From the NCBI GenBank assembly GCA_046094845.1, contig JBJTIE010000049.1:1-44427 (forward strand): a stretch of DNA of 44,427 bases, given 5' to 3'. The notes under the pieces are model-generated. The model had not been told where the DNA came from and did no database searches. It saw nothing but the letters and a program-made list of their open reading frames with translations. Positions within the stretch are counted from its first letter, which is position 1; the number at the start of each line of letters is the position of its first letter. This document shows positions 3,669 through 42,243 of this stretch, one piece after another. A program made the translations under genes and the position numbers. Source of the stretch: Planctomycetaceae bacterium. Lineage in GTDB: Bacteria; Planctomycetota; Planctomycetia; Pirellulales; UBA1268.

Positions 3669-3740
3669 TCCGGATCGACCCCTGCGGTTCTCCTAGCAGA
3701 CACACAGACGACTCGTCGGCTGGCTGCCAGGAGGACAACC

Positions 3741-4772
3741 GTGATCGCCCTCTCCAAAAAAGCTGCTTCGTTCAAGAAAGGCCGCGGCCCTGCGGCTGCC
3801 TTGCGGTCGGCACCGTCCAGCCGGACGGCCGCGGCGGATCCCGCCCAGCGGGAGGCTCTCCTCTCCCAGCGCGAGGCCCTCAAGGCCCGCCGGGCGCAAC
3901 TTTTCGACCGGCTCATCGAGTACATCCCCTGTCGGCAGTTTCTGAAGGCCGACGCCGAGGCCCTCGCCTCGACGCCCCCAGCCGACGCGGCTGTGCCGCT
4001 CGAGACCTACGACCGCGAGCCCGCCCGCGGCGAAGGCCTCACGCCCTACCTCGCCAGCCTCTATCAAACCCGGCTGCTGACGAAGGACGAGGAGCAGTAT
4101 TACTTCCGCCGGATGAACTGGCTGAAGTTCCGCGCCGCCACGGCCCGCGGTCGCCTCGACAAGAAACGGGCTACGCTCCGGCAGATCGATCAACTCGAGG
4201 GCTGGCTCACCGAGGCCGACACGGTGAAGGCGATCCTGATCACGTCGAACCTCCGGCTCGTCGTGTCGATCGCCAAGAAGTTCGTCGACGCGTCGTGGAC
4301 CTTCGAGGAGCTCGTCAGCGAGGGCAACGTGGCCCTGATGCGGGCCGTCGAGAAGTTTAACTTCGCTCTCGGCAATCGATTTAGCACGTACGCCACCTAC
4401 GCCATCCAGCGGCATTTCTACCGGATCTCGCACCGTGGCCGCCAGCAACGCAAGCGGTTCGTCACCGATGACGAGGCTCTGAAGTCGCGGGCCGAAGATC
4501 CCGACACGACCGAGTATCATTCCGCGGAACAGATCGGCATGCTCAAAGAACTGTTCACCGGGTTCCTCGATGAGTTGGAGCCCCGGGAGCGGAAGATCGT
4601 CGTGGCGCGGTTCGGGTTCGACGGCAAACCGCCACGGACGTTCCGTGAGCTTGGCTCACAGATGGGCGTGTGCAAGGAAAGGATCCGGCAGATCCAGACC
4701 CGGGCCATGGAAAAGATCCGTGACATGGCGGCCGGGGCCCGGCTCGAGCAGACAGTGGGCGACTGGCTGTGA
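3741..4772 (+). CDS. RNA polymerase sigma factor, sigma-70 family
   Basis: GTG start with GGAGGA 6 nt upstream. Region 2: NLRLVVSIAKKF...EGNVALMRAVEKF...STYATYAIQRHF. Region 4: ERKIVVARFGFDG...TFRELGSQMGVCKERIRQIQTRAMEKIR. Confidence 0.9.
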   Translation: MIALSKKAASFKKGRGPAAALRSAPSSRTAAADPAQREALLSQREALKARRAQLFDRLIEYIPCRQFLKADAEALASTPPADAAVPLETYDREPARGEGLTPYLASLYQTRLLTKDEEQYYFRRMNWLKFRAATARGRLDKKRATLRQIDQLEGWLTEADTVKAILITSNLRLVVSIAKKFVDASWTFEELVSEGNVALMRAVEKFNFALGNRFSTYATYAIQRHFYRISHRGRQQRKRFVTDDEALKSRAEDPDTTEYHSAEQIGMLKELFTGFLDELEPRERKIVVARFGFDGKPPRTFRELGSQMGVCKERIRQIQTRAMEKIRDMAAGARLEQTVGDWL

Positions 4773-6877: not shown

Positions 6878-6900
6878 GGGCGGTGGACCGCACACTCCGC

Positions 6901-6926
6901 CCGTAGTCCGCACACTCCGTGTGCGG
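6901..6926 (+). repeat. REP-like element, family A, GTAG-head orientation (CC-GTAG-TCCGCACA-CTCCG-TGTGCGG)
   Basis: GTAG at 6903-6906 is followed by a 7-bp stem / 5-nt loop palindrome. It is the inverse complement of the copies at 7022-7047, 19963-19988 and 28380-28405. Confidence 0.6.
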
Positions 6927-6933
6927 TTCGAGG

Positions 6934-7047
6934 CGTGAGGGCCGAGTGGCCAGGCTACTCGTGCACAGGTTGGCATACTCGCAGAGCAAATAGCTCGGCT
7001 CTGCGGCGTTCGTTCCGTGGGCCGCATGCGGAGCATGCGGACTACGG
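6934..7047 (+). repeat. Short (114-bp) variant of the GTGAGGG-head / REP-tail composite element
   Basis: Head is GTGAGGGCC. The ~60-nt tail AATAGCTCGGCTCTGCGGCGTTCGTTCCGTGGGCCGCATGCGGAGCATGCGGACTACGG aligns closely with the tails of the 228-bp copies. The central hairpins are absent. A partial tandem GCGGACTACGGCCGGCA duplication follows at 7040-7066. Confidence 0.5.
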
Positions 7048-7212
7048 CCGGCAGCGGACTACGGCCGGCAGCGATTTACGGGGCCGGCATCAATTTTCGC
7101 GGCCTGCCCGCGGTCTTGCGGCAGCAGCCGCCACTCCCTACCTTCCCCGCCCGCCTGCACCAGGCACCGCAGGCCGGATGACACACAGGATGTCTTGCAG
7201 GGAGTTGCTGCG

Positions 7213-18519: not shown

Positions 18520-19707
18520 TCAACGGCGCGGCATGATCAGGGCGAGCAGGCCGCAGGCGGCCAGTGACAACCCCGCGGTGACGGCGAACGACGCGGCAGG
18601 CCCGTGCGGTCCGCGATCCCAGAGCCAGCCGGCGAGCAGCCCTGCCGGCAGGGCCATGAGTCCCTGCACGAGGGCATACCATCCGAACGCGCCGCCGTGT
18701 CGGCCATCGGCGGCCAAAGCCGCCACGACGGCTCGTTCAGCCGGCTCGGCAATGCCGTAGGCGACCCCCACGAGCCCGAGCAAGGCGAGCACGGCCGGCA
18801 TGCTCGTGGTACAGGCCAGGCCGGCGTATGCCGCCGCGAACGTGCCCCAGCCGGCGGCCAGGGCCAGCCGCGGCGACACGGCATCGGCCATCCGCCCCGC
18901 CCGCGCCGCCACGCCGCTCTTCGCCAGGCTCATGCCAAACCAGACGAGCGGTATGAGCGCCGCAGGCACACCCGTGTCTGCCGCCCGCAGAAGCAGAAAC
19001 TGCTCGCTCGCCGCGCCCAGCGCCCAGACAGCGACGCACACGAGCAAGAGCGCCTGCGAGCGGTTCAGGCCGGTCGAGATGGCCGTCGCCGCAGCCACCG
19101 GCGTCCGCCGCGGCGGATCATGCACGAACCGCCAGATCACGGCGAGCGTGGCAAGCCCGGGGAGCAGGGCGAGGAGAAACAGCCGCCGCTCCTGCCCGGG
19201 AAACACGAGCAGAAACAGCATCGCCACGAGCGGCCCGATCGCCGCACCGGCATGATCCATGGCGCGGATGTGGCCAAACGCCGCGCCCCGTGTCTCGGGT
19301 GGAACCAGATCCGCCACGAGCGCATCGCGGGGCGCCGACCTGATCCCCTTGCCGAAACGATCGGCCGCCCGCACGACGAGCGCGCCGAACGGGCTCGTGA
19401 CGATCCCCATCAGCGGCCGGATGACCGCCGACAGACCGTAGCCGATGAGCACGAGCGGCCGTCGGCCGACCGCATCGGAGATGGCACCACTCGGCAGCCG
19501 CACGACCGCCGCCACGGCATTGGCGATGCCGTCGATGAGCCCGATGTCGACGCTGGTGCCCCCGAGCCCCTTCACGAACCCGGGTAGCAGCGGATAGATC
19601 GCCTCGCTCGAAAAGTCCGTGAGAAAGCTCGTCCACCCCAACGCCCGCACCGCGGCGGGCGTCTCTCCGCGAGACACGGTGCCGAGCGACTTGTCGTTGG
19701 TGTCCAT
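18520..19707 (-). CDS. MFS transporter
   Basis: Multi-TM profile, with WTSFLTDFSSEAIYPLLP and a GAISDAVGRRPL loop (MFS motif A-like). Start moved to ATG 19707 because the upstream 66 codons of the ORF lie inside a repeat element. Confidence 0.8.
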   Translation of the reverse strand: MDTNDKSLGTVSRGETPAAVRALGWTSFLTDFSSEAIYPLLPGFVKGLGGTSVDIGLIDGIANAVAAVVRLPSGAISDAVGRRPLVLIGYGLSAVIRPLMGIVTSPFGALVVRAADRFGKGIRSAPRDALVADLVPPETRGAAFGHIRAMDHAGAAIGPLVAMLFLLVFPGQERRLFLLALLPGLATLAVIWRFVHDPPRRTPVAAATAISTGLNRSQALLLVCVAVWALGAASEQFLLLRAADTGVPAALIPLVWFGMSLAKSGVAARAGRMADAVSPRLALAAGWGTFAAAYAGLACTTSMPAVLALLGLVGVAYGIAEPAERAVVAALAADGRHGGAFGWYALVQGLMALPAGLLAGWLWDRGPHGPAASFAVTAGLSLAACGLLALIMPRR

Positions 19708-19760: not shown

Positions 19761-19988
19761 GTGAGGGGTTGCCCATGCCCCGAGAGCCGGCGTATGCCGC
19801 CGAGCGCAGCCAGGATGGCGAAGCGAAGGCGGCATCCGAGCGAGCGAAGAACAGGATGTTCGTAGCGAGCGTCCGGCAACGGGGCGTGGGCAACCCCGAG
19901 CCCACGCCACAGGAGGTCGACCTACAGGGGAATAGACGGGACTGCGGCGTTCAGACCGCGGGCCGCATGCGGAGCATGCGGACTACGG
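19761..19988 (+). repeat. 228-bp structured composite repeat (GTGAGGGG head, four nested hairpins, REP-A tail), copy 1
   Basis: About 80% identical by eye to 28179-28405 in the same orientation. Stems: 19765-19782/19880-19897, 19794-19801/19828-19835, hairpins 19809-19819 and 19849-19861, REP 19963-19988. Compensatory substitutions separate the two copies. Confidence 0.7.
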
Positions 19989-20016: not shown

Positions 20017-21834
<1,818 letters not shown>

Positions 21835-23005: not shown

Positions 23006-24022
23006 TTACGGCAGCACATAACGGCCCGTTTTACGGGTGCCCGTCCGGAGAATGACGCCAGCATCGAGGAGCGGCCGCAGAATGCCGCTGGCTGCCTGCT
23101 TTGAAACACCGAGCCGTGCCCACATCTCGGCAGGCGCCATGCCGCCATGATCGCGAAGCAGTCGGAGCACTTGCTCCTGCCGTGGGGTCAGCATGAGTGG
23201 TGGACCGGCCGCACGACGATCCACCGCCTGAATTCGGGACCACACCCGCTCCAGCGTCACGAGCAGTCCTTCGGCGCAGTATTCGAGCCACGCCGTGAGG
23301 TCCTCGCCGCGCTCCCGCACGTCCATGAGCATTCGGTAGTATCGCTCCCGATCTTCCCAAAAAAACTCATCGACTGAAAACACGTGATGCGAGTCGAAGC
23401 CACGGCGGTAGAGTTCCCACAGCGAGAGAGCCCGCCCGGTTCGTCCATTGCCATCGGCGAACGGGTGGATCGCCTCGAACCGATAGTGAATGATCGCCGA
23501 CGAGAGCACGGGCGAAACGACTTCTGCTTTGTCGTTCCACCAGGAAAGGAGCTCGAACATCAGACCCGAAACATCGCTCGGTGGTGGTGGCACGAACGAG
23601 CCGACACGGACGGCGATCGTGCGATATCGTCCGGCCACTCCCTGCTCCATGACTCCGTCGGCGAGGATACGGTGCAGTTCAAGGATGTCGTCATGACGAA
23701 GCCTGTCGCGTGCCGGCTGCCGCTCGATGTGCCGCAGCCCAGCGAGACAATTCTCGATCTCGCGCCGCTCGCGATTTGAAGCCGCAAGCGGGGAGCCACC
23801 GGCCTCGATCGCGCGGACCTGTTCGAGCGACAGCGAGTTGCCCTCGATGGCCGTCGATGCGTAGGCATTACGGGAGCGGGAATCGCGTTGAATTGCGTGC
23901 ATCCACGGCACCGCCACCGCCGCCTGTGCAATCCGCTCTCGGGTGGAAGCGATCGACTCGACATACCCGAGAAGGGTGGTCGTGATCGTGAACTGTGGGG
24001 AATACGCCATGCCATAAGTCAA
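23006..24022 (-). CDS. Fic/Fido-domain protein with N-terminal inhibitory motif and C-terminal winged-helix domain
   Basis: Canonical HPFADGNGRTGR Fic motif. (S/T)xxxE(G/N) inhibitory motif STAIEGN near the N-terminus. C-terminal LTPRQEQVLRLL...wHTH-like segment. Confidence 0.9.
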   Translation of the reverse strand: MTYGMAYSPQFTITTTLLGYVESIASTRERIAQAAVAVPWMHAIQRDSRSRNAYASTAIEGNSLSLEQVRAIEAGGSPLAASNRERREIENCLAGLRHIERQPARDRLRHDDILELHRILADGVMEQGVAGRYRTIAVRVGSFVPPPPSDVSGLMFELLSWWNDKAEVVSPVLSSAIIHYRFEAIHPFADGNGRTGRALSLWELYRRGFDSHHVFSVDEFFWEDRERYYRMLMDVRERGEDLTAWLEYCAEGLLVTLERVWSRIQAVDRRAAGPPLMLTPRQEQVLRLLRDHGGMAPAEMWARLGVSKQAASGILRPLLDAGVILRTGTRKTGRYVLP

Positions 24023-27105: not shown

Positions 27106-27620
27106 GGCGAGTGGCCTGCGGCTGCCGCCGGATGCTGGCGGCAGTATTCGTAGACCGCGATCGCCGTGGATGTGGCCGCGTTGAGGCTGTGGGGCATGCC
27201 GGCCATCGGAATCTCGGCGACGCGGTCGAGCCGCGCGAGTTCGTCGGGCTCCAGTCCCGTCCGCTCGTTGCCGATCACGAGCACCGTGCGTGCCGCGAAC
27301 GCAAACGAGAACAGACGCTCCGAGTTGGTCGTCTGCTCGAGGCCCACGAGCTGGTAGCCCTCGGCCTTGAGCCGGTCGAGCACGGGCGGCAGGCTGCGAT
27401 GCACGTCGAGCGCCACCGAGTCGGCACCGTCGCGGGCGATCCGCTCGTGCAGCCGAGCCGCGCCACAGGCGATCACCCGCCGGATGCCGAAACAGCCGCA
27501 GGTCCGTACGATGTGGGAAAGATTGACATGGCTGCGCATCGCCGCACAGGCGACGACGAGCTCGCGCGGCGTCGGCAGAATCTCGGGAGGCTTGTGCCTG
27601 ATGTGCTCGAATCGCGGCAT
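27102..27620 (-). CDS. SpoU/TrmH-family RNA 2'-O-methyltransferase
   Basis: VLVIGNERTGLEP...IPMAGMPHSLNAATSTAIAVYE are SpoU motifs 2 and 3. The start is uncertain (ATG at 27620, 27638 or 27650). Confidence 0.8.
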   Translation of the reverse strand: MPRFEHIRHKPPEILPTPRELVVACAAMRSHVNLSHIVRTCGCFGIRRVIACGAARLHERIARDGADSVALDVHRSLPPVLDRLKAEGYQLVGLEQTTNSERLFSFAFAARTVLVIGNERTGLEPDELARLDRVAEIPMAGMPHSLNAATSTAIAVYEYCRQHPAAAAGHSP

Positions 27621-27636
27621 CGTCTCGCATCTGATC

Positions 27637-28182
27637 ATGACGGTTGCCATTTCATTCTGCCCGATCGCCGGCTGCTCGCCACCACCAGCAGCCCCGCCGG
27701 CCGCTGCACAGGCCATCGACGTCGCACTCGTCGATCACGCCGGCCTGATGGCGGCCGTCGAGGCCCGGCGCGGCCGGATCGTCGTGCTCGACTGCTGGAG
27801 CACGTCGTGTCCGCCCTGCGTGAAGGAATTCCCCGGCCTCGTCGCGCTTGCCGCAAAGTATCGTGACCAGGTCGCCTGCCTTTCCATCTCCTTCGACTAC
27901 GAGGGCATCGGCACACCGGAGACGCTCCTCCCACGAGTGCGGTCGTTTCTCGAGAACGTCGGCGCCGGCCAGATCGGGAACATGCTGACGAAGGAAGATG
28001 CCGACTCCCTCTACAAGAAGCTCGACCTTGTCAGCATCCCGGCCGTCTACGTCTGGAAGCCCGACGGCACGCTCGCCCGCCGGTTCGACGACGACGACGC
28101 AGCCCGCAGACTCGGCCGCCCCTTCACCTACGCCGACGTCGAAGCCGAAGTCCGCAGCCTGCTGCCGACCGCAACGCCGTGA
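27637..28182 (+). CDS. TlpA-like thioredoxin-fold redoxin (CPPC), probable lipoprotein
   Basis: VVLDCWSTSCPPCVKEFPGL thioredoxin motif and an N-terminal FCPIAGC lipobox-like sequence. An alternative ATG at 27601 would give a longer signal peptide. The stop TGA lies inside the repeat head. Confidence 0.8.
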   Translation: MTVAISFCPIAGCSPPPAAPPAAAQAIDVALVDHAGLMAAVEARRGRIVVLDCWSTSCPPCVKEFPGLVALAAKYRDQVACLSISFDYEGIGTPETLLPRVRSFLENVGAGQIGNMLTKEDADSLYKKLDLVSIPAVYVWKPDGTLARRFDDDDAARRLGRPFTYADVEAEVRSLLPTATP

Positions 28183-28405
28183 GGGGCTGCCCGTGCCCCG
28201 TCGCCGGCGTATGGCGGCAAGCGCAGGCAGGATGCCGAAAGCGCAGCCGCCATCGAGCGAGCGAAGGACAGGATGTCCGAAGCGAGCGTCCGGCGACGGG
28301 GCGTGGGCAGCCCCGAACCATCACCACAGGAGGTCGACCCGCGGAGGAATAGACGGGCCTGCGGCTTTCAGAGCGTGGGCCGCACACGGAGTGTGCGGAC
28401 TACGG
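28179..28405 (+). repeat. 228-bp structured composite repeat, copy 2
   Basis: Aligns end to end with 19761-19988. Stems: 28183-28200/28297-28314, 28211-28218/28246-28253, hairpins 28226-28236 and 28266-28278, REP 28380-28405. Confidence 0.7.
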
Positions 28406-39901: not shown

Positions 39902-41023
39902 TCATGCCCGCGGTCTGCGGGCGGTGGCGACGACGGCGCGGTAGGTCTCGACGTATCGCATCGCGACCTGGTGCCAGTCGTGACCGGCAAGGGACTGGGG
40001 GGCGGCGGCCCGCAGCCGGCGGGTGACCGCGGGCTCGTCGAGCAGCCGCTGGATCGCCGCCGCGATCGCCGTGGGTGACTCCGGCCGGCAGAGCAGGCCG
40101 TTGACCTCCGACGTCACCAGTTCGGGGTTGCCCCCGACGTCGGTGGCCACGACGGGCAGCCCGGAGGCCAGGGCCTCGAGGATCACGTTGGCGAACGGCT
40201 CGCGACGCGAGGGACAGACGAAGAGCTCCGCCGACCGATACAGGCTCACCTTGCGGTCGCCCGTGACGGGGCCGAGCAGCCGCACGCGGTCACGAAGCCC
40301 CAGCCGCTCGACCTGGGCCTCGAGCGCGGCCGACTCGCCGCCATCGCCGGCAATCAAGAGATCGACGGCTGGATCGCGGAGCCGGGCGTAGGCGTCGATG
40401 AGCAGGTCGAACCCCTTGTGCCGCACGAGGCTGCCGAGGCCGAGGAGGTAGCGGCGGGGATGGGGAAAGGGCTCGGCCGTGGCAAAGGCCGTGACATCGA
40501 CCCCGTTGTTGATCGTTACGATCCGGTCAGCAGCGACGCCGAGGCCATGAATCACGTCGCGGAGGGCATCGCCTTGGGCGATGATGGCGTCGGCGGCGGT
40601 CAGCGCCCGGGTCATCCGGTGCGCCAGCCGCGGCGTCCGGCGGATCGCCTCGTCGGGCAGCACGTCGGCCCCGTGCGGCCGCACCACGTAGGGAACCCCG
40701 GTCAGTTGCCGGAGCGTCGTGGCCACGTAGGCCTGCGGATAGGCGGCATGGCAGTGCACGACGTCGAAATGGTGGCGGGCATGCAGGGCCAGGAGCCGGG
40801 GCAGAATCGCACGCACCCCGAACCGCTTCGACCACTGCCGGCGGTGCCGGACGACGGGATAGCCGAACTGCCGGTCGTCGAACGGCTCCCGGGCCGGCGG
40901 CGCGACGACGACGGGCCGGTGGCCGAGCCGCACGAGTTGCCGGCAGAGCTGATCGAGCACGGTCTGCGCACCACCGAGCGTGGGCAGACAGACGTCGGTA
41001 TGGAGGCAGATCGAGAGCGACAT
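39902..41023 (-). CDS. Glycosyltransferase family 4 (GT-B)
   Basis: N-terminal PTLGGAQTVLDQLCRQLVRLGH and C-terminal E-x7-E motif (REPFANVILEALASGLPVVATDVGGNPE). Start set at ATG 41023. Confidence 0.88.
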   Translation of the reverse strand: MSLSICLHTDVCLPTLGGAQTVLDQLCRQLVRLGHRPVVVAPPAREPFDDRQFGYPVVRHRRQWSKRFGVRAILPRLLALHARHHFDVVHCHAAYPQAYVATTLRQLTGVPYVVRPHGADVLPDEAIRRTPRLAHRMTRALTAADAIIAQGDALRDVIHGLGVAADRIVTINNGVDVTAFATAEPFPHPRRYLLGLGSLVRHKGFDLLIDAYARLRDPAVDLLIAGDGGESAALEAQVERLGLRDRVRLLGPVTGDRKVSLYRSAELFVCPSRREPFANVILEALASGLPVVATDVGGNPELVTSEVNGLLCRPESPTAIAAAIQRLLDEPAVTRRLRAAAPQSLAGHDWHQVAMRYVETYRAVVATARRPRA

Positions 41024-41045
41024 GGGCTTCAACACTTTGCACCCA

Positions 41046-41232
41046 GTAGGTGCAGACTGGCAGTCTGCACCATACCGCATTGCGCAGATTACCAATGTGC
41101 GGCTACGGGTTTGGAAGCCAGTCACCCTGTAGGTGCAGATTGGTAATCTGCACACGGTGGCCGACCGCAGATGACCAATGTGCGGCTACGGGGCTGGATG
41201 CCTGTTTGTAGGTGCAGATTGGTAATCTGCAC
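41046..41232. repeat. Cluster of family B REP-like elements (three GTAG-GTGCAGAYTGGYARTCTGCAC hairpins alternating with two CAGATKACCAATGTGCGGCTACGG units)
   Basis: GTAG heads at 41046, 41129 and 41208, with 9-bp stem hairpins at 41050-41070, 41133-41153 and 41212-41232. The ~77-bp period fills the divergent GT4/epimerase intergenic region. Confidence 0.65.
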
Positions 41233-41286
41233 ACCGTCGCCTACGCTGTGGCGTCGCGATCATGGCATCGACATGGAGGCGTTGTG

Positions 41287-42243
41287 GTGAAGCGGATACT
41301 GGTCACCGGGGCGGCGGGGTTCATCGGTTCGCACGTGGCGGAGGCGCTGCTCGAGCGGGGCGACGAGGTGGTCGGCCTCGATGAACTCAACGACTATTAC
41401 CCCGTCGCCTACAAGCGTGAAAACCTCACCCTGCTCGGACGCCATCCGCGGTTCTCGTTCGTGGAAGGGGACATCTGCGACGAACGGCTCGTCTCCGAAC
41501 TCTTTGCCGCGTGGCGGTTCACACACCTCGCCCATCTCGCGGCGCGGGCCGGGGTGCGGCCGTCGATCGCCGATCCGTTTCTCTACCAGCGGGCGAACTG
41601 CGACGGCACGCTCACGCTGCTCTCGGCATGCGTCGAAGCGGGCCTCGAGAACGTGGTGATCGCCTCGTCGTCGTCGGTCTATGGCAACTCGCGGGCGATT
41701 CCATTCCGGGAGGACGACTCCGCCACCGACCGGCCGATCTCCCCCTATGCCGCCACGAAGAAGGCGACCGAGGTGATGGCCCACACGTTCCATCACCTGC
41801 ACGGGCTCGCGATCACCGTGATCCGTCCATTTACCGTCTACGGCCCGCGCGGCCGGCCCGACATGGCGCCGTGGCTGTTCGTGGAATCGGCCCTGGCCGG
41901 CCGGCCGATCCGGAAGTTCGGCGACGGCACGACCCGCCGCGACTACACCTACATCGGCGACTTCGCCCGCGGGTTCGTCAACGCGATCGACCGGCCGCTG
42001 GGCTACGAGATCGTGAATCTCGGCAACTCGGCCACCGTCTCGCTCAACGAGGCACTCGACGTGGTGCGAGAGGTGACCGGAAGGGAACTCATGATCGAGC
42101 AGGCGCCGCCTCAGCCGGGCGACGTGGAGATCACCAACGCCGACATCTCGAAGGCCAGCCGGCTGCTCGACTACGACCCGGCGACGTCGTTCAGCGAGGG
42201 GATGGCCCGATTCTGCGACTGGTATCGCGGCTGCCGGCTCTGA
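41287..42243 (+). CDS. NAD-dependent nucleotide-sugar 4-epimerase (UDP-glucuronate 4-epimerase-like, extended SDR)
   Basis: ILVTGAAGFIGSH Rossmann motif and YAATKKATE (YxxxK). DYYPVAYKRENL and RRDYTYIGD blocks are typical of the GlcA/GalA epimerase subgroup. GTG 41284/41287 follows GGAGG. Confidence 0.88.
   Translation: MKRILVTGAAGFIGSHVAEALLERGDEVVGLDELNDYYPVAYKRENLTLLGRHPRFSFVEGDICDERLVSELFAAWRFTHLAHLAARAGVRPSIADPFLYQRANCDGTLTLLSACVEAGLENVVIASSSSVYGNSRAIPFREDDSATDRPISPYAATKKATEVMAHTFHHLHGLAITVIRPFTVYGPRGRPDMAPWLFVESALAGRPIRKFGDGTTRRDYTYIGDFARGFVNAIDRPLGYEIVNLGNSATVSLNEALDVVREVTGRELMIEQAPPQPGDVEITNADISKASRLLDYDPATSFSEGMARFCDWYRGCRL

Follow-up and report, generated by a model that had tools for sequence, protein, structure and literature searches.

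A probable REP-like family of structured intergenic repeats with a conserved branched core in freshwater Pirellulales

Contig JBJTIE010000049.1 of an uncultured freshwater Pirellulales planctomycete (Planctomycetaceae bacterium, assembly GCA_046094845.1), analyzed here over its 44,427 nt (the window), carries two plus-strand copies of a hairpin-rich intergenic sequence, copy A at 19761-19988 and copy B at 28179-28405. The locus raises the question of what kind of genetic element they represent: a first-pass annotation, made from the sequence of the window, had considered a discrete small RNA (sRNA) that titrates the RNA-binding protein CsrA, an element resembling miniature inverted-repeat transposable elements (MITEs), or both. 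With a probability of about 0.6, they are copies of a mosaic, non-autonomous intergenic repeat of the type represented by REP (repetitive extragenic palindromic) sequences, BIMEs and REPINs, distinguished by an unusually conserved branched interior. The family to which they belong is well supported as real, and could not be matched to anything previously described.

Both copies were located in the positions and the shared orientation given by the annotation, with the 5' end at 19761 exact, and the sequences flanking A and B are unrelated. Gapless repeat detection aligned 203 nt at 82% identity. The seven pairing-preserving differences that had been claimed are all present, each verified by eye in the sequence: one in the outer stem (T-A to C-G), two in the inner stem (ATGCCGCC/GGCGGCAT in copy A versus ATGGCGGC/GCCGCCAT in copy B), one in hairpin 1 (GCCA-GGA-TGGC versus GGCA-GGA-TGCC), one in hairpin 2 (GAAC..GTTC versus GGAC..GTCC) and two in the terminal REP stem (CCGCATG.. 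versus CCGCACA..). The remaining mismatches of the outer stem are G.T on the plus strand, again as described. Predicted folding energies were -128.1 kcal/mol for copy A (z -7.2 relative to shuffled sequences; z -5.9 for its minus strand) and -136.3 kcal/mol for copy B (z -8.0).

The 228-bp unit consists of three modules, a 141-nt core, a linker of ~54 nt and a REP hairpin of ~33 nt. The core of copy A (19761..19901, plus strand) reads GTGA|GGGG...CCCC|GAGC; its outer stem, of 22 positions, closes a three-way junction from which two arms capped by GGA loops extend. Hairpin 1 (19809..19819, plus; GCCA-GGA-TGGC) presents GGA at 19813-19815, and hairpin 2 (19849..19861, plus; GAACA-GGA-TGTTC) presents it at 19854-19856, flanked by the tandem G.A helices GC-GA-GC / GC-GA-GC. 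The core of copy B (28179..28318, plus) reads GTGA|GGGG...CCCC|GAAC. A covariance model built from 106 copies scored the core of copy A at 152.8 bits on the plus strand and 23 bits on the minus strand, and that of copy B at 144.2 bits on the plus strand. Across the whole window, this model recovered cores only at copies A and B, with minus-strand scores of 23-29 bits.

That these two full copies are the only ones in the window might suggest that a segment was duplicated locally, or that a palindrome arose by chance without a family behind it. Such an origin, already at odds with the unrelated flanks of A and B, was refuted by the size of the family and by covariation far beyond that of shuffled controls, and can be given virtually no credence. 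A pattern search for the core in metagenome contigs, mostly from freshwater lakes, listed at least 120 matches; family counts refer to 124 loci among the matches listed by this search and by one for the linker (cited below by L numbers), plus the window, so that copy totals are lower bounds. BLAST and nhmmer gave at least 158 matches to the core, and ~120 Pirellulales-like freshwater metagenome contigs contain over 140 copies, in contexts unrelated to one another. Several contigs terminate within the element, as is expected for a repeat. A search with a linker pattern in species-representative genomes found four loci, three of them in a single metagenome-assembled genome ('bacterium bin72', JAPOJV01). 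An Rfam search, one of the steps proposed by the annotation, gave no match at gathering thresholds for the whole window in Rfam 15, and a permissive scan of copy A returned noise (E >= 0.3). Plasmid and phage collections contained no match to the element. Seven matches in IMG/VR (L127-L133) to a 22-nt pattern were attributed to chance, as they lie inside a conserved gene of high-GC viral contigs and are rejected by the covariance model. A cluster of open reading frames (ORFs) that would 'translate' the element was likewise discarded as a side effect of the repeat, and 1-2 nt indels between copies break the reading frames.

The fold of the core was examined in an alignment of 106 distinct copies, in which columns 115-137 were fixed by the search pattern, so that conservation there, which affects part of the 3' interior, provides no evidence. 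The consensus is a three-way junction. In the outer stem, GGGGCUGCCCRUGCCCCG pairs with CGGGGCRYGGGCAGCCCC, and its arms are inverted copies of GGGGC-N7-GCCCC, giving terminal arms of 18-22 bp. A second helix (GCCGG/CCGGC) follows; the first arm contains the inner stem and hairpin 1, (G/C)CA-GGA-UG(C/G), and the second contains the GC-GA-GC / GC-GA-GC helices and hairpin 2, GRRCA-GGA-UGYYC. Standard pairs occupy 97.0% of cells; the corresponding values are 88.1% for column shuffles and 36-41% for slid controls. Double-sided changes affect 26 of 45 pairs, versus 14.7 +/- 1.5 in shuffles, none of 500 of which reached 26. Double changes were found in 11 of the 20 pairs of helix 1 and in all of the hairpin 2 pairs 98-100/111-113. 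Fully paired haplotypes numbered 41 for the outer stem, 21 for the inner stem P3, eight for hairpin 2 and four for hairpin 1, the last being GCCA/UGGC (51 copies), GGCA/UGCC (43), GCCC/GGGC (4) and GCAA/UUGC (2). Because these statistics lie far beyond those of the shuffled controls, the conservation of the fold is not a matter of chance; substitutions across the family preserve the stems rather than breaking them at random, in agreement with what the two window copies had suggested. As the stems vary, the GGA loops stay constant, and many interior columns outside the arms are invariant. The prominence of GGA in loops that the annotation had noted extends to the family: 80 of 106 copies have AGGAU as the loop of hairpin 1, and CAGGAUG is the commonest form in hairpin 2, with CGA or other variants in ~10% of copies. 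In a core variant at L005 419-582, L004 1672-1746 and L124, the first inner arm is swapped for the hairpin CACCGATYCGTCTNAGCGRATTGGTCGTCG, giving a unit of ~170 nt.

The sequences adjoining the outer stem extend this structure by four positions per side, GYGA...GARC. The 5'...3' combinations GCGA...GAGC and GTGA...GAAC occur in 29 and 23 copies, respectively, and cross combinations in two; a further 24 copies in all have Watson-Crick variants (GCGA...TCGC in eight, GTGA...TCAC in seven, GCTC...GAGC in seven and GTTC...GAAC in two). The rule thus comprises a G-C pair, a covarying C-G/U-A pair and a tandem G.A/A.G. The tandem G.A is replaced exclusively by Watson-Crick pairs, and the minus-strand form, TC..TC, is present in no copy. 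Most copies have GA on both sides (GYGA..GARC), which made this dinucleotide a candidate for a target-site duplication; as it covaries within the stem, and as TC..GA and GA..TC variants exist, the flanking GA bases look like structure instead.

This substitution pattern is asymmetric with respect to strand. Outside the columns fixed by the search pattern, G.U exceeds A.C by 92 to 15 (raw counts, 149 to 26), in numbers that represent copies rather than independent events and with a bias that is spread across many columns. The two most variable pairs of the outer stem illustrate it, with AU 45, GC 34, GU 24 and AC 2 in one and UA 68, UG 29, CG 5 and CA 2 in the other. Together with the absence of pyrimidine mismatches in place of the tandem G.A, this excess argues that the plus strand is the strand under selection, as the annotation had proposed from the two window copies. 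A strand-specific imperfect palindrome of ~140 nt also recalls an integron attC or another recombination site that folds as a single strand, but the core sites RYYYAAC/GTTRRRY are missing, the ends being GYGA-GGGG / CCCC-GARC, and there are no same-orientation cassette arrays, the neighbors being housekeeping genes such as lepA and a signal peptidase gene; this origin is accordingly extremely improbable. On anatomy, attC sites were dropped along with retrons, omega-RNA/bridge-RNA, hammerhead ribozymes and Y-RNA: the end motifs do not fit, no protein gene lies alongside and the copies are too numerous; in the hammerhead case, the junction strands are too short for its core.

Comparison among copies showed that the 228-bp unit is a composite and not a single element: the repeat reported by the annotation is real, and its modules are separable. 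Match coverage falls steeply past ~141 nt, ~140 copies consisting of the core only and ~20 also having the 3' extension, and the linker follows ~20 of ~150 cores. In copy A the linker ('mod2'; 19902..19955, plus) contains CCACGCCACAGGAGGTCGACC..GGAATAGACGGG..CTGCGGCG and the REP hairpin (19956..19988, plus) reads CCGCATGC-GGA-GCATGCGG followed by ACTACGG; in copy B, sequence comparison placed the linker at 28319..28372 (plus), and the REP hairpin (28373..28405, plus) reads CCGCACAC-GGA-GTGTGCGG-ACTACGG. In the 3' extension of the family the linker contains CCACAGGAGGTCGACC...GGAATAGACGGG..., and it includes AGGAGG. Linker plus REP also occur without a core, at L058 and in the window at 6964..7047 (plus), where a solo linker-like module is followed by the REP CCGCATGC-GGA-GCATGCGG-ACTACGG at 7022-7047. 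This locus is the third copy counted by the annotation, which holds for the linker and REP; there is no core there, and the core covariance model returned a weak palindrome match of 20 bits at 6896-7052. An inverted REP of the same family at 6901..6926 (minus; CCGTAGT-CCGCACAC-TCC-GTGTGCGG on the plus strand) forms a REPIN-like inverted pair with that at 7022-7047. The two lie ~95 nt apart within a cluster at 6886-7060 that also includes a half REP at ~6886-6900, is followed by two occurrences of GGACTACGGCCGGCAGCG and is situated between a nucleoside symporter gene and lpxD.

The attached hairpin bears the signature of a REP. Its minus strand reads GTAG-TCCGCATGC-TCC-GCATGCGG, i.e., GTAG followed by a palindrome, its loop is GGA, and its stem variants (CCGCATGC, CCACATGC and CCGCACAC) each have a matching 3' arm. 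The arms of the core adjoin GYGA or GYTC rather than GTAG. Other GTAG-type palindromes (CCGCAGGTTGAAAACCTGCGGCCAC, GCACAGGTTGAAAACCTGTGCTAC, CCCCATCGCTTACGCGATTGGGCTTCCTG and GCCCGTTGCGGAGCAACGGGCCTACGG) often adjoin cores, before or after them. Carrier genomes contain at least five REP families; of 126 cores, 36 have a member of one of five such families no more than 160 nt downstream, and 23 have one upstream. Cores that share arms also form tandem arrays of three to four units, the later ones lacking a 5' arm; these were found at L068 (1435-1940) and at L043 and L044 (the same locus), with a period of ~122-135 nt. These REP-rich surroundings, the tandem cores and the inverted array indicate a mosaic organization as in BIMEs and REPIN clusters. 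A second REP family in the window forms an alternating inverted array at 41045-41244, with three ~83-nt units of GTAG-GTGCAGATTGGTAATCTGCAC with CGCAGATTACCAATGTGCGG-CTAC, in the divergent spacer of a glycosyltransferase gene (39905-41035, minus) and an epimerase gene (41284-42240, plus); from its sequence, it looks like a classical REPIN cluster. Stand-alone AGGAU-loop hairpins (GCATGGC-AGGAT-GCCATGC) adjoin cores at L079 ~3730-3760 and L051 ~7080-7170, beside an A/T-rich hairpin, GAAAAACATCGCATCGTGCGATTTTTTC.

Comparison with the REP, REPIN and BIME sequences of Pseudomonas and enterobacteria, which are associated with RAYTs (REP-associated tyrosine transposases), revealed extensive parallels (PMC3116915, PMC3337134). 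In both, copies are extragenic, numerous, present in both orientations and mostly downstream of genes; a long hairpin is closed by a pair of small palindromes in inverted orientation; compensatory changes are common, and copies occur in tandem clusters and in mosaics with further REPs; and the hairpin attached to the 3' side has the signature of GTAG plus a palindrome. REPINs in particular are described as long hairpins in which compensatory changes are common and which form tandem clusters (PMC3116915). The differences are that the ~100-nt interior of the core, instead of being a loosely conserved spacer, forms a three-way junction conserved in sequence, in which tandem G.A helices and two arms with GGA loops are found, that its tetranucleotide is GYGA/GYTC and not GTAG, that no RAYT is linked to it, and that the host phylum is Planctomycetota.

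The placement of copies relative to genes was assessed with a gene finder based on codon log-odds, for which the same DNA served as the training set. Called genes contained none of 139 copies. Among 108 copies with both neighbors called, 57 lie between convergent genes, 23 are co-directional and sense, 25 are co-directional and antisense, and three are divergent; thus 105 of 108 adjoin at least one gene 3' end, 53% are between convergent genes and promoter regions are avoided. Orientation shows no preference with respect to local transcription and no link to local GC skew (52/107). REPs in enterobacteria have been shown to act as terminators or as barriers to 3' exonucleases, and this location would suit an orientation-independent 3'-end hairpin kept by the host for such a role, with mobility as its route of arrival only. 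The folding of both strands well beyond shuffled sequences (z -7.2 and -5.9) and the conservation of copies in place are in keeping with this explanation, but there is no U-tract, a plain barrier would need neither a conserved branched interior nor GGA loops nor a preferred strand, and the location bias could equally reflect intolerance of insertions in promoter regions. A host-kept barrier of this kind is therefore considered possible, if rather unlikely.

Comparison of orthologous sites showed that copies vary in presence and absence. Copy A lies between genes for a major facilitator superfamily (MFS) protein (18520-19707, minus) and lepA (20017-21834, minus), and is antisense to both. Relatives share the lepA-MFS synteny, with the genes overlapping in L126 (MFS 86% identical) and separated by a 74-nt spacer in GCA_041445565.1 (79% identical), compared with a 310-nt spacer in the window that is nearly all element. 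In L125 (90% identical), the closest relative compared, a 311-nt spacer (L125 2690-3000) contains only the 3' arm of the core, the beginning of the linker sequence and an unrelated long palindrome of ~115 nt (CCGGTCGGGGGTCGCGCGCAGCCGCCGG...). This series suggests that palindromic elements turn over rapidly at the lepA-MFS site. At the site of copy B, GCA_041445565.1 has a 43-nt spacer and no element, and filled/empty orthologous pairs exist at further loci. An apparent inverted copy at the orthologous site L112/L027 proved to be an alignment artefact. The MITE-like option of the annotation fits these observations, as both window copies are missing at orthologous sites of relatives and the family is dispersed and mosaic with REPs.

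In the core, two inverted arms (GYGA-GGGGCTGCCCRTGCCCC and its complement), each a small palindrome, close the three-way junction, and in one subfamily the linker and a GTAG-type REP hairpin lie 3' of the core and complete the 228-bp unit. If the repeat is REP-like, it would be copied via a single-stranded, strand-specific intermediate, the likeliest agent being a RAYT-like HUH/Y1 enzyme acting in trans on single-stranded DNA and requiring a fold of defined polarity. After insertion, copies would be tolerated or retained as stable 3'-end hairpins. A requirement for a folded single strand would explain the compensatory changes and why G.T and purine-purine mismatches are tolerated when their complements are not, and would also account for the indifference to the direction of host transcription and for the pattern of presence and absence.

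Several observations weigh against this interpretation. No transposase, RAYT included, was found in the window, and E. coli TnpA-REP, whose sequence had been confirmed with PDB 4ER8, gave no tblastn match in ~0.97 Mb of fetched loci, a weak test for a single-copy gene that would rarely be sampled; RAYT genes are single-copy. A search of the fetched loci with the regular expression Y..NPV[RK]A produced nothing credible, and clustering of 1,703 ORFs from the loci for a recurrent neighbor yielded only housekeeping families or spurious antisense ORFs. Neither insertion boundaries nor a clean target-site duplication could be read in filled/empty orthologues, which are 77-90% identical or rearranged. 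The interior, ~100 nt, is highly conserved and branched, unlike the spacer of a REPIN, whose conservation falls below that of its REPs. Furthermore, the GTAG of the attached REP is on the minus strand and the selected strand of the core is the plus strand, an arrangement not readily accounted for by a single enzyme that works on a single strand.

The behavior of insertions shared by relatives is a further difficulty. In five groups of such insertions the element is far more conserved than its mostly coding flanks: 97.8-99.3% versus 84-90% for L094, L045 and L030, 98.5% versus 87.5% for L077 and L039 (a copy in antisense context), 98.5% versus 88.4% for L086 and L096, 97.1% versus 90% for L066 and L050, and 100% versus 95.7% for L108 and L026. 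In two further orthologous groups, element and flanks are about equally conserved. This excess is unlike a passive relic and suggests that copies are constrained once inserted or undergo gene conversion; either purifying selection in place or homogenization by gene conversion would produce it. The branched interior with its GGA loops, conservation in place and the opposite-strand GTAG together keep a role at the RNA level open.

One form of such a role is that the core is a functional RNA module in which two CsrA-type hairpins, with CAGGAUG loops ~40 nt apart, would once transcribed bind or titrate CsrA or another reader of GGA loops; the copies would then make up a dispersed sponge, or would regulate in cis from 3' untranslated regions (UTRs). 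The CsrA idea of the annotation was reasonable on the sequence of these loops, and CsrA/FliW have been reported in some Planctomycetes (PMC4682653). Both core loops keep GGA as their stems covary, the motif recurs in the loop of the REP, the linker contains AGGAGG, the fold is specific to the plus strand, orthologous copies are much more constrained than their flanks, and 80 of 108 copies have their plus strand downstream of a same-strand gene. As in CsrB, RsmY and RsmZ, several GGA motifs (CAGGAUG) are displayed in hairpin loops, at a spacing that suits a CsrA dimer. The organization is otherwise different. Known sponges are single-copy or few-copy genes, discrete and equipped with their own promoter and terminator, whereas the core is dispersed in many copies that vary in presence and absence, half of them antisense to local transcription, and has no Rfam match. 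Upstream of the cores, no conservation extends across the family; members of one subfamily have in common a linker of ~12-20 nt that is not promoter-like and sometimes follows a REP. Scans of the two window copies detected neither a sigma-70-like promoter nor a U-tract terminator, although planctomycete promoters may escape such a scan.

Of the 48 co-directional copies, 25 are antisense to their neighbors, copy A among them, and the plus-strand bias is unchanged, with G.U to A.C at 18 to 3 in antisense copies and 17 to 2 in sense copies; the antisense-context copy of L077 and L039 is, as noted above, conserved well beyond its flanks. Approximately 10% of copies lack GGA in a loop, and tblastn for csrA found no match in the fetched loci, a sample too small to be informative. 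Half of the copies that are informative are thus in the wrong orientation, and their structural signature is the same. In its architecture the element does not resemble the gene of a sponge sRNA, and the discrete ~230-nt CsrA-titrating sRNA of the annotation was not borne out, its modules being separable and no transcription signals having been found. A CsrA-binding module in the broader sense is unlikely on this evidence. A combination of the two ideas, in which the core is a plus-strand RNA module maintained by the host and spread by REP-like mobility, a distributed sponge or a tag of mRNA fate in Pirellulales 3' UTRs, would have to be viewed as more doubtful still. In another reading of that speculative kind, the core may be the substrate of a novel strand-specific, single-strand mobilization system that recognizes the three-way junction.

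Other families of structured repeats offer partial parallels. ERIC/IRU sequences of enterobacteria and BOX elements of Streptococcus pneumoniae are noncoding, structured intergenic repeats of ~100-200 nt for which no transposase is known. Their modularity (boxA-boxB-boxC, versus core-linker-REP) and their occurrence in either orientation within transcribed intergenic regions are shared with the present family; sequence similarity is not, and a plus-strand signature and a branched fold are not defining features there. PATEs, the palindrome-associated derivatives of IS200/IS605 that move as single-stranded DNA, are likewise non-autonomous and without an obvious target duplication, and a strand-specific folded single strand would explain why G.T is accepted and A.C is not. 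In contrast to PATEs, the orientation of copies in the family has no link to GC skew, the proxy used for replication direction, no tnpA or tnpB was found nearby, and the ends make up a single long closing stem in place of separate hairpins near each terminus. With MITEs it has in common terminal inverted repeats (arms of 18-22 bp), small size, lack of coding capacity and presence/absence variation at orthologous sites.

The window is housekeeping chromosome that encodes DUF1559, BBP7 and PEP-CTERM proteins, and the nearest homologues of its MFS protein bear the names Pirellulales or Planctomycetia. Copy B lies between a thioredoxin-like ORF (27367..28182, plus) and a signal peptidase gene, also on the plus strand, and its GTGA provides the stop codon of the former (TGA at 28180-28182). 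The last ~7 codons of this ORF and its TGA (28159-28182) match the conserved 5' linker of the element, (T)GCC(A/G)ACC..AACGCCGTGA. From this match, the insertion of copy B appears to have replaced the C-terminal end of the thioredoxin-like gene. Elsewhere in the window, an ORF at 23009-24016 (minus) encodes a Fic/DOC domain and, at the C terminus, a winged helix of the MarR type.

To our knowledge, almost no noncoding elements have been described in Planctomycetes. The present family joins REP-like spread and mosaic organization with a conserved branched fold, GGA loops that resemble protein-binding sites, a one-strand signature and slowly evolving orthologous copies. It explains many of the contig breaks in freshwater Pirellulales assemblies, for the annotation of which the covariance model is ready. 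If the constraint acts at the level of the element, the core would be a well-defined substrate for finding the mobilizing enzyme; if it acts at the level of the host, this would be a mobile repeat recruited for RNA-level regulation. The family would gain greatly in significance from evidence of plus-strand transcripts or of binding to CsrA.

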